From Betaproteobacteria bacterium RIFCSPLOWO2_12_FULL_62_58 (GTDB taxonomy: Bacteria > Pseudomonadota > Gammaproteobacteria > Burkholderiales > SG8-41): a stretch of DNA of 64,000 bases. Positions 12,894 through 18,066 of the stretch are shown piece by piece. Location of the stretch: the NCBI GenBank assembly GCA_001772005.1, contig MERI01000103.1, positions 18,232-82,231 on the forward strand, in the 5' to 3' direction. Position 1 is the stretch's first letter; every line of letters begins with the position of its first letter. A program made the translations under genes and the position numbers. The notes beneath the pieces were generated by a model, which saw nothing but the letters and a program-made list of their open reading frames with translations, was not told the DNA's origin and did not search any database.

Positions 12894-13466
12894 ATGAGCA
12901 TCAAATCCGACCGCTGGATCCGCCGCATGGCGGAGAGTCAGCGCATGATCGAGCCGTTCGAGCCCAACCAGATCAAGGAAGTGAACGGCCAGCGCATCGT
13001 CTCCTACGGCACCTCCAGCTACGGCTACGATATCCGCTGCTCCAGCGAATTCAAGCTGTTTACGAACCTCAACACCACCATCGTCGATCCCAAGAGCTTC
13101 GACCCCAAATCCTTCGTCGACGTCACGGGCGATTTCTGCATCATTCCGCCCAACTCATTTGCGCTCGCCCGGACCGTCGAGTATTTTCGCGTCCCGCGCA
13201 ACGTACTGGTGCTTTGCCTTGGAAAAAGTACATATGCCCGTTGCGGCATCATCGTCAACGTGACGCCCCTCGAACCGGAGTGGGAGGGCTACGTGACCCT
13301 GGAGTTTTCCAATACCACGCCCTTGCCCGCCAAGATCTACGCCAACGAGGGTGTGGCGCAGGTGATTTTCCTCGAGTCGGCGCCCGACGATGTCTGCGCG
13401 ACCTCCTACAAGGACCGCGGCGGCAAGTATCAGGGCCAGGTCGGCGTAACACTGCCCAAAATTTGA
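12894..13466 (+). CDS. dcd: dCTP deaminase
   Basis: [40 protein letters not shown]. Confidence 0.96.
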
Positions 13467-13653
13467 TCGGTGCAGCTGTCGCTCGCGCGGCCTGTGGAAG
13501 GACGGCGCGAGGGCGCGACAGCGTTACGCCGGCCAGTCGAATACCCTCCCGCGCCGCGCTCGCTCCGCTCGCGAAGCCGAGAACCGAGGCGCTTCGCTCG
13601 CCCGAGTCGGGGCTGTCCTCCAAAAATATTTTCGCCAAAACCGCAAAAAACTC

Positions 13654-13681
13654 TTGATTCCTGGGAAATAGATCTTATAAT
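13654..13681 (+). promoter_or_regulatory. Sigma70-like promoter
   Basis: TTGATT-16 bp-TATAAT with an A-tract upstream. Confidence 0.65.
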
Positions 13682-13737
13682 TCGCGGAAATTTGCAGTTT
13701 TGTGATTGACGGTAGCGCTGAGTGACAGGAGGTCATC

Positions 13738-13803
13738 ATGACAGTTATGAGGAACTGCTGCTGTACGGGTGATGTGGTTGGTTTGCTCATTCCGGAAACC
13801 TAG
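13738..13803 (+). CDS. Putative 21-aa leader peptide MTVMRNCCCTGDVVGLLIPET
   Basis: AGGAGG RBS 5 nt before ATG 13738; TAG at 13801-13803 just before the decarboxylase RBS. Confidence 0.5.
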   Translation: MTVMRNCCCTGDVVGLLIPET

Positions 13804-13821
13804 GTCGTAGGAGATACTTTG

Positions 13822-15009
13822 ATGGCCGTGCGCCCTGTCGCCGTTAAGAAACAGCAATCCGCTCTCGAAAACGAACCGCATCTTTTCGACACCCACCCTG
13901 AAGTACGCCTGGACTTCAGCCACGTCCGGGAAGCCCTGAAACAGGGCTATACGAAACCCTTCCTGCTGGTTGACACCAACATCGTCCGTACGAAAGCCCG
14001 GCGCTTCAAGGCCGCGATGCCGCGCGTGCAGCCGCATTACGCCGTGAAGGCGAATCCCGATCCGCGCGTGCTGAAAACCTTGATCGAGGAGGGCGTGGGC
14101 TTCGAGATCGCATCCATTGCCGAGCTCGACCTCCTGCTCGGTTTGGGCGTGCCGGCGGCGGAGGTCTACTACAGCAACCCCATGAAGTCGCGCGCCTACC
14201 TTGAGTATGCGGCGGTCAAGGGCGTCGAGTGGTACGTGCTGGATAGCCTCGAGGAGCTGCGCAAGATTCATAGCGTCAAGCCTGACGCCAAGCTTTACGT
14301 GCGGATCGAGGCGCCCAACGTCGGCAGCGACTGGCCGCTCACGGGCAAGTTCGGGGTGAAGAACGAGGAGGTAGACGGCATCATAGCCGAGGCTGCGCGC
14401 ATAAAGGCCGACCTGTGCGGCGTGACGTTCCACGTCGGCTCCCAATGCCGCAACCCGGAAAACTGGCGCGTCGGCATCCAGAGCGCCAAGCGCGCGTTCA
14501 AGAAGATGCGCCTGGCCGGCCTGAAGCCGCTCCTTCTCAACATCGGCGGCGGCTACCCGGTGCGCCATGTGAAGCCGATTCCCGCGATCGAGAAGATCGC
14601 CGAGGTCGTCAATCATGCGATCCGCGACATCCCGCAGAACGTGCGCATCATGGCCGAGCCGGGCCGCTTCCTGGTCTCCGACGCCGGCTACTTCGTGTGC
14701 CGGGTCGTCGGCACCGCCACCCGCAACGGCAAGCGCTGGATGTACTGGGACGCGGGTGTGTTCGGCGGCGTGATCGAGACCACCGAGGGCCTGCGCTACG
14801 ACATCATCACCGACCGCAGCGGCAAGCCGATCCCGTGGTGCATCGCCGGCCCTACCTGCGACTCGGTGGACGTGTGCATGCGCGACGAGATGTTCCCCGA
14901 GGACATGCAGGAAGGCGATTTTATCTACATCGCCAACGCCGGCGCCTACACCACGGCCTACGCCAGCAATTTCAACGGCTTTCCGCTGCCGGAAGTGCGG
15001 GTCTTTTAG
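13822..15009 (+). CDS. Fold-type III PLP-dependent ornithine/lysine decarboxylase
   Basis: PHYAVKAN (PLP Lys), FHVGSQC, NIGGG, AEPGR, GPTCDSVD, GAYT. Confidence 0.92.
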   Translation: MAVRPVAVKKQQSALENEPHLFDTHPEVRLDFSHVREALKQGYTKPFLLVDTNIVRTKARRFKAAMPRVQPHYAVKANPDPRVLKTLIEEGVGFEIASIAELDLLLGLGVPAAEVYYSNPMKSRAYLEYAAVKGVEWYVLDSLEELRKIHSVKPDAKLYVRIEAPNVGSDWPLTGKFGVKNEEVDGIIAEAARIKADLCGVTFHVGSQCRNPENWRVGIQSAKRAFKKMRLAGLKPLLLNIGGGYPVRHVKPIPAIEKIAEVVNHAIRDIPQNVRIMAEPGRFLVSDAGYFVCRVVGTATRNGKRWMYWDAGVFGGVIETTEGLRYDIITDRSGKPIPWCIAGPTCDSVDVCMRDEMFPEDMQEGDFIYIANAGAYTTAYASNFNGFPLPEVRVF

Positions 15010-15035: not shown

Positions 15036-15063
15036 AAAGGCGGGCCATGAACCCGCCTTTTTT
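15036..15063. terminator. Intrinsic terminator, probably bidirectional
   Basis: AAAGGCGGG-loop-CCCGCCTTTTTT between convergent genes. Confidence 0.85.
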
Positions 15064-15615: not shown

Positions 15616-15656
15616 CTCGCTTTTGCTCCTCTCTCCTATCCCCTCTCTCCTCTCTC
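15553..15656. repeat. Inverted heptamer array (4x CGAGAGG / 4x CTCCTCT-like) at the thyA-folA junction
   Basis: Units read at 15553-15580 and 15626-15656. Confidence 0.8.
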
Positions 15657-16449
15657 ATATGGCGATCGGCGCCTTGATCGCCGGATGCGGATCGTAGCCC
15701 TCGAGGGTGAAGTCCTCGTACTTGAAATCAAAGATGCCTTTCACTGCCGGGTTGAGCCTCATCACCGGCAGCTTGCGCGGCGCGCGCGAAAGCTGCTCGC
15801 GCGCCTGGTCGAGATGGTTGAGATAGAGGTGGGTGTCGCCGAAGGTGTGCACGAAATCGCCGAGCTTGAGCCCGCAGGCCTGCGCCATCATCATGGTGAG
15901 CAAGGAATATGACGCGATATTGAACGGCACGCCGAGGAAGAAGTCGGCGCTCCTTTGGTAGATCTGGCACGAGAGCTTTCCGTTCGCAACATAAAACTGG
16001 AAAAACGCGTGGCACGGCATCAGCGCCATCTTGTCCAGGTCGGCGACGTTCCAGGCCGAAACGATCATGCGCCGCGAGTCGGGATTCGTCCTGATCAGCT
16101 CGATGACCTGGCTGATCTGGTCGATATGCCGGCCATCGGCTGCCGGCCACGAGCGCCACTGGTAGCCGTAGACCGGGCCAAGATTTCCGTTGGCATCCGC
16201 CCATTCATCCCAGATCGTCACGCCGTTTTCTTTCAGGTACTTGATGTTGGTCTCGCCCTTCAAGAACCACAGCAGCTCGTGGATGATGGACTTGAGGTGC
16301 ACCTTCTTGGTGGTGAGCAGGGGGAATCCGGCGTTGAGATCGAATCGCAGTTGGGCGCCGAAGATGCTCAGCGTGCCGGTGCCGGTGCGATCGCTCTTGT
16401 GCGCTCCGTGCTCGAGCACGTGCCGCATGAGGTCCAGGTATTGGCGCAT
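15655..16449 (-). CDS. thyA: Thymidylate synthase (264 aa)
   Basis: MRQYLDL start, DRTGTGT, PCH catalytic motif, YQRSAD, PFNIASY. Confidence 0.97.
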
Positions 16450-16453
16450 AACG

Positions 16454-16485
16454 TCAGGATTCAGGATCCGGGATTCAGGATTCAG
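16454..16485. repeat. Single-arm heptamer array (TCAGGAT x4) immediately upstream of thyA
   Basis: TCAGGAT TCAGGAT CCGGGAT TCAGGAT TCAG. Confidence 0.8.
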
Positions 16486-16593
16486 AGAAAAGGGATTGCA
16501 TGACTGCAATTTTAATCGAATTCGCTTTGGCGAGGTTGGCTGCGGCAGTTGGTTATAATCCCATCTCTTGTGCATTTCTTCATCGGGATTTTC

Positions 16594-18066
16594 ATGATTG
16601 CCAAGCTCGAACAAAGTTCCGCGTTGCTGACCGACGGGGACGCGAAGCGCGTGTCCCATTTGCTGCTGGTGCTGCCGAAAGCCAAGACTCTTGACGCCCT
16701 GCCAGCAGTGCCGTTTCGGGATGCGCTGGATGCCGGGCTCTTGCGTCGCCGCAAGCAATTCAGCGAACTCGCCAAAGGGCCGCTCGCAGCCGATTTGCCG
16801 CACGGCGCGCTCGCGGCCTGGGTGATGCTCGACCCCGCCCAATCGGCATTCGAGCAGCAAACGGCGGTGCGCAAGGGACTGCAGCTGCTGTTAGCCGAAA
16901 AACCGGAGGAAATCGCAATCGGCGTTTTCGGCAACAGCGGGCAGCGCCGCCACGCCGCTGAACTTGCGGTATACGCGGCATGGATAAACGGCGCGCGGTT
17001 ACCCCAGCGCAAGAAGAAGTCGGACGAAAAAGTTCTGCAGCGGGTCCGGCTGCATGGCCATCGTGAGAGAGACGCGTTTGCGACGTTGCGAGCGCAAGCC
17101 GCGGGCAACACGCTATGCCGGGAGCTGACGGTATTGCCGCCCAACGAACTGACGCCCGGCGCCTATCGTGAGCGGGTGAAAAAGCTCGCAAAGAAATATG
17201 GCTGGGAGCGCGAGGAGTACGACCTGAGGAAACTACGCAAGATGGGGGCCGGCGCGTTTGTTGCGGTGGCGCAGGGCAGCGCCGAGGACGATGCCGCGAT
17301 TGTGCACTTGCGCTATCGGCACAAGAAGGCAAAGAAAACCGTGGCGCTGGTCGGCAAGGGCATCTGTTTCGATACCGGTGGCCATAATTTGAAGACCGCA
17401 CGCTACATGCATGGCATGCACGAGGACATGAACGGATCGGCTGTTGCGCTGGGCATACTGCTTGCCGCGAGCGAGGCACGCCTGCCGGTCAATCTCGATT
17501 GCTGGATGGCGCTGGCGCAAAATCACCTGAGCCCGAAGGCCTACAAGCAGAACGAGGTGGTGACCGCGTTGAACGGCACCACCATCGAGATCGTCCACAC
17601 CGACGCCGAAGGGCGCATGGTGTTATCCGATACCTTGACCCTTGCCGCGCGCGCCAAGCCCGACCTCATTGTCGATTTTGCGACGCTCACCGGCAGCATG
17701 CACGTCGCGCTCGGCGATCGCCACAGCGGCATCTTCGCCACCGGCGGCGATCTGGAAAAAAAGGCGGTCGCCGCCGGTATCGCCTCAGGCGAACGGGTGT
17801 GCGCTTTTCCGTTGGCCGAGGACTACGACACGGCGCTCGAGAGCAACATTGCCGATGTCAAGCAGTGCACCATGGAAGGCGAGGCGGATCACATACTCGC
17901 CGCGCGCTTCCTGAAGCGCTTCACCGACGACCGGCCGTGGATCCACATGGATCTATCCGGCAGCAGCTGCAAAGGGGGCCTGGGCGCGGTCGCGACCGAC
18001 GTCACTGGCTTCGGCGTGGCGTGGGGCGTCGAGCTCCTGAAGATGGCGCTCGGCCGGGCGCGTTGA
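16594..18066 (+). CDS. M17 leucyl aminopeptidase family protein
   Basis: [35 protein letters not shown]; ATG 16594 after TATAAT at 16554. Confidence 0.9.

Follow-up and report, generated by a model that had tools for sequence, protein, structure and literature searches.

A conserved 21-codon leader-peptide gene with an invariant UAG stop codon precedes a fold-III decarboxylase gene in betaproteobacteria

To our knowledge, bacterial arrest peptides that sense metabolites are few: TnaC, SpeFL and a handful more. Each of the known ones has added to what is understood of small-molecule binding in the ribosome tunnel. SpeFL, TnaC and PepNL are described as blocking the action of release factors at the stop codon (10.1101/604074, PMC11890864), and for PepNL both the identity of the stop codon and the penultimate residue are reported to matter for termination arrest (PMC11890864). 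In the available account, SpeFL is a 34-residue peptide with an HIRRXXH sensor, encoded 257 nt before the fold-I gene speF in gamma-proteobacteria only; with ornithine bound it arrests the ribosome on the stop codon, which is UAG in E. coli although all three stop codons occur across species, blocking release factor 1 (RF1) and acting in a Rho-dependent manner (10.1101/604074). Here we describe a 21-codon upstream open reading frame (uORF) that lies directly ahead of a gene for a fold-III decarboxylase of the ornithine/lysine type. It was found in a stretch of 64,000 nt (hereafter, the window) from Betaproteobacteria bacterium RIFCSPLOWO2_12_FULL_62_58 (assembly GCA_001772005.1, contig MERI01000103.1, positions 18,232 to 82,231 of the forward strand).

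For fold-III enzymes the closest case, as far as the published description goes, is odc1 (uORF-25-1) of the Breaker lab, a structured RNA of alpha-proteobacteria in which a long hairpin, P1, and a pseudoknot sequester the ribosome-binding site; its uORF of 11 residues has two UUG start codons 2 nt apart and overlaps the main open reading frame, and its signal is given as unknown (Brewer et al. 2021, PMC8632094). In eukaryotes, the fungal AAP peptide of arg-2/CPA1 (24 amino acids, Asp12 essential) senses arginine, and the MAGDIS peptide encoded by the uORF of mammalian S-adenosylmethionine decarboxylase (AdoMetDC) senses polyamines; in both, as described, a ribosome stalled on a short uORF lowers translation of the downstream biosynthetic gene (PMC7038982). 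A betaproteobacterial leader of the kind presented below was not described in the full-text literature searched, which leaves most subscription journals outside, and prior publication is possible.

A first-pass annotation made from the letters of the window had pointed out a promoter, an AGGAGG Shine-Dalgarno (SD) sequence, a 21-codon frame and a stop codon 5 nt before the AGGAG of the decarboxylase gene, and all of these were found in place (Table 1). Related loci were collected in two sets: loci L001–L022 come from searching 61 related genomes for the protein, and loci L031–L110 from a decarboxylase-alignment scan with one genome per species. The second set comes from uncultured Betaproteobacteria and Burkholderiales, Nitrosospira and Nitrosomonas, one of them the isolate Nitrosomonas sp. 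Nm34, while scan hits under ~52% identity belonged to gamma-proteobacterial Porticoccaceae and Cellvibrionales. Loci were taken as orthologous when the decarboxylase match was at least 64% identical and its 5′ end was in reach (n = 85); L092, L105 and L110 were left out of the counts of uORF presence. Motif-bearing uORFs were picked by a C-terminus of the form P-x-[T/S/G], and the identity of the stop codon played no part in the choice. By this measure 79 of the 85 loci have a uORF at the same place that ends in P-x-[T/S/G] followed by TAG, the motif being absent from the remaining six (L013, L021, L063, L078, L084 and L098). No such uORF was present in the 14 loci whose decarboxylase is less than 64% identical. 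Thus, the uORF is conserved in orthologous leaders, a check that the first-pass annotation had called for, and its recurrence with the same architecture in 79/85 loci places it far from chance. The 79 uORFs comprise 77 unique sequences, of which 64 are exactly 21 codons long and the others 16–26; 76 of the 77 start with AUG. To judge by this distribution, the family is specific to one clade of betaproteobacterial fold-III decarboxylases. Its hosts are uncultured groundwater and soil betaproteobacteria, Nitrosomonas, Nitrosospira and others, with one Nitrosomonas isolate (L050) as an example of a cultured ammonia oxidiser that carries the uORF.

We also searched 201 genomes sampled from the order with a pattern that is blind to genes: the SD-start word, then CC after 51 free bases and TAG after 7 more. 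Exactly one match was obtained in each of 15 genomes, and a reversed control pattern gave 0. Fourteen of the 15 matches directly precede the decarboxylase gene; at the last, the contig breaks off after 100 bases, which resemble the part encoding the decarboxylase N-terminus. All 15 encode [I/L/V/T]-P-[E/V/L]-T, which the pattern did not require. In the source genome the 14-nt SD-start word has one further exact match, the start of an ordinary signal-peptide protein, and we rejected it as a second copy of the leader. Neither a Pfam scan of the 21-amino-acid peptide (0 families) nor an NCBIfam search with E up to 10 (0 matches) assigned it to a family. Ten peptides of the family, looked up as exact sequences, were absent among ~15 billion predicted proteins, indicating that gene callers leave the uORF unannotated.

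Within the uORF, conserved residues stand at a constant distance from the C-terminus: Thr21, Pro19, Ile18, Leu/Val13, Asp/Glu12 and Asn6. Among the unique sequences the C-terminal tetrapeptide is IPET in 35, IPVT in 16, LPET in 6, IPLT in 4, VPET and TPVT in 3 each, with five others found twice each. Position 12 is acidic (D/E) in 62/77 unique uORFs and in 57 of the 64 copies with 21 codons, position 13 is L or V in 59/64 of the latter, and Asn6 is found in 53/77. These residues are kept while the third bases of their codons vary freely, for Pro at –3 (CCT 29, CCC 26, CCG 14, CCA 8), Thr at –1 (ACG 33, ACC 23, ACT 12, ACA 3) and Ile at –4 (ATT 41, ATC 16, ATA 4) as well as for Asp (GAT 34, GAC 17). 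Over codons 12–21 the entropy of codon positions 1, 2 and 3 is 0.92, 0.73 and 1.61 bits, respectively. The uncorrected ratio of nonsynonymous to synonymous diversity (pN/pS) is 0.22 for codons 18–21, 0.55 for codons 12–17 and 0.74 for codons 7–11. Read in frame, pairs of uORFs have a mean amino-acid identity of 0.47; in the two other frames the mean falls to 0.24 and 0.25. Synonymous bias was the second check that the first-pass annotation had proposed. Wobble variation with residues kept is the signature of coding rather than of RNA constraint, and by its pattern of substitutions the C-terminal half of the uORF behaves as coding sequence. In this set, chosen by P-x-[T/S/G], selection at the amino-acid level is strongest beside the stop codon, as in translated uORFs of the termination-stage arrest class. 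We hold it for nearly certain that the 21-codon uORF is a real, translated and selected leader-peptide gene dedicated to this decarboxylase.

The Cys-Cys-Cys run, which the first-pass annotation had taken as the key feature, does not belong to what is conserved. Three consecutive Cys codons are present in the window and would suit an attenuator that reads Cys codons, or a peptide that senses Cys, redox state or metal. Yet CCC occurs in only 1 of the 77 unique uORFs, that of the window, and CC in three; any Cys is found in 28/77, and the other 49 have none. Codons 7–11 are the least constrained part of the uORF. In the window's near relatives codons 7–9 are mostly YRC (TGC, CGC, TAC, CAC), where Cys, Arg, Tyr and His interchange by single transitions. 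In attenuators that read tandem codons, of the trpL, pheL or cysS-leader type, the codon run is accompanied by terminator and antiterminator hairpins; here there is no conserved codon run, no terminator-like site was found between 13681 and 13822 (+), and conserved pairs that could form alternative hairpins are absent as well (see below). A non-conserved run with neither a terminator nor alternative hairpins rules out a Cys attenuator or sensor as a property of the family, and we give such a reading next to no weight. The suggestion of an undescribed uORF or arrest peptide therefore stands in part: the uORF is real, no description of it was found and its conservation fits a peptide acting in cis, while the proposed link to Cys, redox or metal status is dropped.

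The stop codon is TAG in 79 of 79 motif-bearing uORFs, although the wobble position right beside it is near saturation (1.70 bits) and the base that follows it varies (C 36, T 19, G 15, A 7). Since TAG could turn into TAA, also a stop codon, by a single transition, the G must be under selection. TAA is read by both release factors, TAG by RF1 only. The simplest reading of the invariant TAG would be that termination has to go through RF1 alone. The distance from TAG to the ATG of the decarboxylase gene is 16–29 nt in 76 relatives (18 nt in the window), and the SD sequence of the decarboxylase, AGGAG in 44/76, begins 5–12 nt past TAG in 72/76 (5 nt in the window). According to the toeprint rule, when UAG is in the A site the ribosome protects ~10 nt past the stop. 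With the SD only 5–12 nt away, a ribosome waiting at the stop covers or abuts it, and as long as it waits there a 30S subunit has no room at the decarboxylase start.

Two other ways of connecting the uORF with its neighbour were considered and set aside. Fusion of the two frames by read-through or frameshifting is ruled out, as each of the three possible frames of the decarboxylase gene with respect to the uORF is represented (20, 28 and 28 loci). A hairpin that sequesters the decarboxylase SD or couples it to the uORF is unsupported, because the two SD sequences are equally accessible (mean unpaired probability 0.34 for the decarboxylase, 0.36 for the uORF). We noticed, by eye, that several spacers of the Nitrosospira type (e.g. 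L040, L042, L045) carry a CCUCC-like anti-SD immediately after TAG that could pair with the decarboxylase SD; this CCUCC...GGAG mini-hairpin is lineage-specific and invisible in the overall accessibility figures.

We propose that the nascent peptide of the uORF controls the decarboxylase at termination, in cis, and give this reading a probability of roughly 0.55. It builds on features that are directly supported: the existence of the uORF, selection on its peptide, its fixed length, the invariant UAG, the geometry, the exclusive association with one gene and the lack of conserved RNA structure. By the time the stop codon reaches the A site, a chain of 21 residues is contained entirely in the exit tunnel, as is also the case for TnaC, SpeFL, PepNL and AAP. 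In the proposed sequence of events, the very strong SD would load ribosomes on the uORF, and at UAG, with the entire chain still within the tunnel, Ile18-Pro19-x-Thr21 would sit at the peptidyl-transferase centre, Asp/Glu12-Leu/Val13 further in and Asn6 deeper. Because of these residues, RF1 would release the peptide slowly or not at all, probably under the influence of a small molecule from the polyamine pathway. The ribosome waiting at UAG would cover the decarboxylase SD, and a prolonged pause would shut off initiation there; prompt release would leave the ribosome beside the SD and start codon of the decarboxylase, allowing reinitiation or fresh initiation. Output of the decarboxylase would then be set by the kinetics of termination at the uORF stop.

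Alternatively, the released 21-residue product might be a micropeptide that acts in trans, for example one that binds the decarboxylase as an antizyme would. Selection at the amino-acid level would suit such a co-expressed partner too, as would the exclusive occurrence of the uORF beside the decarboxylase gene. In a free peptide, however, neither an invariant TAG nor a fixed distance to the decarboxylase SD is expected, and conservation that peaks in the four residues preceding the stop codon, while the middle third is nearly unconstrained, makes such a role improbable.

The beginning of the uORF is conserved in a different way. GGAGGTCATC stands directly 5′ of the start codon in 57 of the 77 unique uORFs, and GGAGG lies within 14 nt of the start codon in 64. 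The stretch from the SD to the start resembles what we take to be an extended complement of the 3′ tail of 16S rRNA. N-terminal codons show low synonymous diversity (pS 0.54): among the unique uORFs the Thr2 codon is ACA in 47/50 and the Arg5 codon AGG in 32/33, although in a rough count over the window, which includes some spurious frames, ACA and AGG make up only ~10% and ~5% of their codon families. These fixed N-terminal codons, together with the nearly invariant GGAGGTCATC, point to constraint on the initiation region at the nucleotide level.

Such an initiation region is what plain translational coupling would lead one to expect. Here the uORF would be no more than a loading site for ribosomes, which reinitiate 16–29 nt downstream, and nothing would be sensed or arrested. 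A very strong, conserved SD, N-terminal codons conserved as nucleotides (as in an optimised initiation region) and a gap that is short, variable and open to any frame all agree with this. But coupling needs no specific peptide, no length of 21 codons and no particular stop codon, and all three are conserved; the decarboxylase has a good SD of its own, normally spaced and not preferentially sequestered; and lineages without a functional uORF retain the decarboxylase gene. On balance we think coupling alone rather unlikely.

Natural variants separate the start of the uORF from its end. The near-invariant GGAGGTCATCATGACA and a beginning of the form MT(G/S)xR are kept despite a different uORF body in six loci (L021, L063, L084, L085, L087, L092). 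The frame runs for 34–35 codons and reaches the decarboxylase start in L063 and L092, has 15 codons in L084 and 23 in L085, and ends in TGA after 9 codons in L087 and 8 in L021. Judged by these sequences, the start module seems to be of greater age than the IPET module or under tighter constraint. In L098 the conserved promoter is followed directly by an SD and the decarboxylase ATG, with no uORF between them. L013 keeps a 21-codon frame ended by TAG, has lost the SD and the motif, and ends in LHDS. These two loci speak for a uORF that modulates expression but is dispensable for it.

Several points weigh against control by the nascent peptide. Stalling of the ribosome is a matter of pure inference, and dependence on RF1, the direction of regulation and the effector are likewise inferred. 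Something other than RF1 could account for the invariance of TAG. Constraint in the initiation region appears to act partly on RNA or on initiation and not on the peptide, and, as the natural 'knock-outs' L098 and L013 suggest, the decarboxylase can be expressed without the uORF. Position 20, just before the last residue, accepts Glu or aliphatic residues. Finally, the loci are interrelated, and their counts are not independent events; picking uORFs by the P-x-[T/S/G] ending also biases the conservation measured at codons 19 and 21 upwards.

If termination control by the nascent peptide operates as proposed, the geometry bears on the signal. A pause at the uORF stop would repress, and the natural signal would then be a product feeding back on its biosynthetic enzyme; putrescine or spermidine fits the geometry best, while ornithine or arginine is possible. 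Taken to its full extent, the proposal would make the uORF the first bacterial leader peptide known to sense the products of its pathway (putrescine or spermidine), by an RF1-specific block at UAG that parks the ribosome on the SD and represses translation only, a counterpart of MAGDIS and AAP that evolved independently of SpeFL. We offer this extended version tentatively and consider it doubtful as a whole.

An RNA element, be it a riboswitch or a binding site for a protein or small RNA, might instead be the regulator and the open reading frame its by-product. The persistence of GGAGGTCATCATGACA in loci where the uORF body differs would suit this, as would a 5-1-5 palindrome, GTCAT-C-ATGAC, noticed by eye within GGAGGTCATCATGACA. 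However, RNAalifold called 0 conserved pairs in 75 aligned leaders, and the fold of 13688–13845 is no better than that of shuffled sequences (z +0.84; 164 of 200 shuffles equalled or exceeded its stability). The Rfam scan proposed by the first-pass annotation came out empty: for window positions 13000–14500, with E up to 10, there were sub-threshold chance matches only, and 13 related loci gave no match at the gathering score. Together with the C-terminal half, which varies at wobble positions and keeps its residues, these results make an RNA regulator very unlikely.

Two further local signals were noted. A match resembling the Guanidine-III riboswitch at 13895–13952 (–), antisense within the decarboxylase gene, reached 18 bits (E 0.57), below the gathering score of 36, and was taken as chance. 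Some uORFs (L010, L012, L033, L035, L036, L037) appear by eye to have a 5-bp hairpin at codons 8–12 with compensatory changes (CUGCC...GGCAG versus CCGCC...GGCGG); it is not family-wide and was not called by RNAalifold.

The promoter ahead of the uORF (16-nt spacer, 10 of 12 consensus matches) was the one promoter-like site in the 2 kb scanned, where 0.5 are expected. A site of the form TTGnnn-N16–18-TAnnnT is conserved in 73 of 75 related leaders, with 36–58 nt from the end of the –10 element to the ATG of the uORF (76 nt in one leader). Conservation of this promoter ahead of the uORF places the uORF on the leader of the decarboxylase mRNA. A-tracts occur at the place matching the A/T-rich tract in most related leaders (L001–L103). 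In the same leaders, conservation of the promoter region (13620–13700 in the window) extends well past the hexamers. Just 3′ of the –10 element there is a short G+C-rich stretch followed by a T-run, e.g. TATAATCCGCTTTTTTTT in Nitrosospira copies; in sequence it is reminiscent of the initially transcribed T-runs that support reiterative transcription.

Table 1. Features of the leader and the decarboxylase gene; positions are those of the window
Feature	Position	Strand	Remarks
A/T-rich tract, UP-element-like	13620..13653	+	read directly, upstream of –35; putative function
sigma-70-type promoter, TTGATT-16-TATAAT	13654..13681	+	–35 at 13654–13659, –10 at 13676–13681
Predicted 5′ untranslated region, ~50 nt	13688..13737	+	start point predicted from the –10 element
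SD sequence of the uORF and spacer, AGGAGGTCATC	13727..13737	+	SD AGGAGGT at 13727–13733
Leader-peptide open reading frame, MTVMRNCCCTGDVVGLLIPET	13738..13803	+	21 codons + TAG; ATG at 13738, TAG at 13801–13803
Cys7–Cys9 codons, TGC TGC TGT	13756..13764	+	non-conserved
Codons 12–13, Asp-Val	13771..13776	+	conserved acidic + aliphatic pair
Codons 18–21, Ile-Pro-Glu-Thr	13789..13800	+	conserved C-terminal motif
Stop codon TAG	13801..13803	+	invariant across motif-bearing uORFs
Spacer, 18 nt	13804..13821	+	GTCGT after TAG, then decarboxylase SD AGGAG at 13809–13813
Fold-III pyridoxal phosphate (PLP) decarboxylase, ornithine/lysine type, 395 amino acids	13822..15009	+	from Pfam and nearest solved structure
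Terminator-like hairpin with T-run after the decarboxylase gene	15036..15060	+	9 pairs, 6 of them G-C

The product of the downstream gene matches the Pfam domains Orn_Arg_deC_N (8.9e-58) and Orn_DAP_Arg_deC (1e-16), and among solved structures the nearest is that of the Vibrio lysine/ornithine decarboxylase, 2plj (3.8e-67), with eukaryotic ornithine decarboxylases coming next; the assignment to fold III made by the first-pass annotation is thereby borne out. No NCBIfam equivalog model matched the decarboxylase over its cut-off. The gene is preceded in the neighbourhood by metG, a gene for a Mrp/ApbC-type ATPase and dcd, and followed by thyA, the next gene on its 3′ side and on the opposite strand, and pepA. 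The listed thyA frame, 15655–16860 (–), has 401 codons, with the thymidylate synthase domain only at residues 139–401, and overlaps the pepA frame, 16549–18066 (+), by ~300 nt; the true starts of thyA and pepA are probably further in than listed. In the source genome (assembly 98.6% complete) the arginine decarboxylase model for speA found no match over cut-off, and three genes with a Spermine_synth domain were over cut-off. With no speA above cut-off and three spermidine-synthase-like genes, the leader-preceded decarboxylase is probably the main route to putrescine in this organism and may be the sole one.

The stretch was found in DNA metagenomes from groundwater and soil. Among the contigs of relatives in metatranscriptome X19, one of 237 nt with 11 differences spans 13776–14012, i.e. 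the end of the uORF and the start of the decarboxylase gene. This contig is compatible with co-transcription but proves nothing about it, because contigs show no ends and DNA may be present in such libraries.

On the strength of the missing speA match in the source genome, nitrifiers and the groundwater and soil betaproteobacteria that host the family appear to rely on this decarboxylase. Control by the uORF, if true, would explain how polyamine synthesis is regulated in nitrifiers and in abundant betaproteobacteria of groundwater and soil. The family should also be useful as an object of study: it is short, of fixed length, with about six constrained residues, an invariant UAG and a purely translational read-out, and its hosts include cultured ammonia oxidisers.

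Compared with the systems outlined at the beginning, leader and arrest-type peptides as such are known; what is new here is the peptide sequence family, the enzyme class and the purely translational layout. SpeFL (orf34, DUF2618; upstream of speF-potE) shares with our uORF the position of a short reading frame before an ornithine decarboxylase gene, and the conservation pattern seen here, in sequences alone, is the one expected of a termination-stage arrest peptide. Going by the published description of SpeFL, its defining features are all absent here. The first-pass annotation had noted that the peptide does not resemble SpeFL, and we agree: it has 21 residues against 34, HIRRXXH is absent from the uORF peptides of the related loci, and there is no match to Pfam DUF2618. 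The spacer of speFL, 257 nt in E. coli, includes a rut site, whereas the 16–29 nt found here leave no room for Rho-dependent attenuation. SpeF is a fold-I enzyme encoded with potE, while the enzyme in the window is of fold III and has thyA as its neighbour on the other strand. Finally, speFL belongs to gamma-proteobacteria and may end in any of the three stop codons; the present family belongs to betaproteobacteria and always ends in UAG.

TnaC and PepNL of E. coli are likewise short leader peptides whose C-terminal residues prevent the action of release factors. As described, they use UGA and RF2, have other sequences and other downstream genes, and TnaC acts through Rho. The resemblance to odc1 lies in a conserved peptide-coding uORF of fixed length before a presumed ornithine decarboxylase gene. 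There, by the published account, twin UUG codons start a uORF of 11 residues that overlaps the main frame, whereas the uORF described here starts with AUG, has 21 codons and lies wholly upstream. odc1 is a structured RNA, in contrast to the leader of the window and its relatives, where neither conserved structure nor an Rfam match was found.

The closest functional analogies are AAP and MAGDIS, as far as these are described. The peptide presented here has a similar size (21 amino acids), an acidic residue at position 12 in most 21-codon copies and an enzyme of the polyamine pathway encoded downstream. AAP and MAGDIS are eukaryotic and depend on scanning, whereas initiation here is led by an SD, and there is no sequence homology. 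The Asp12 common to AAP and the uORF peptide may be a coincidence, and by analogy it could serve as a lead only.

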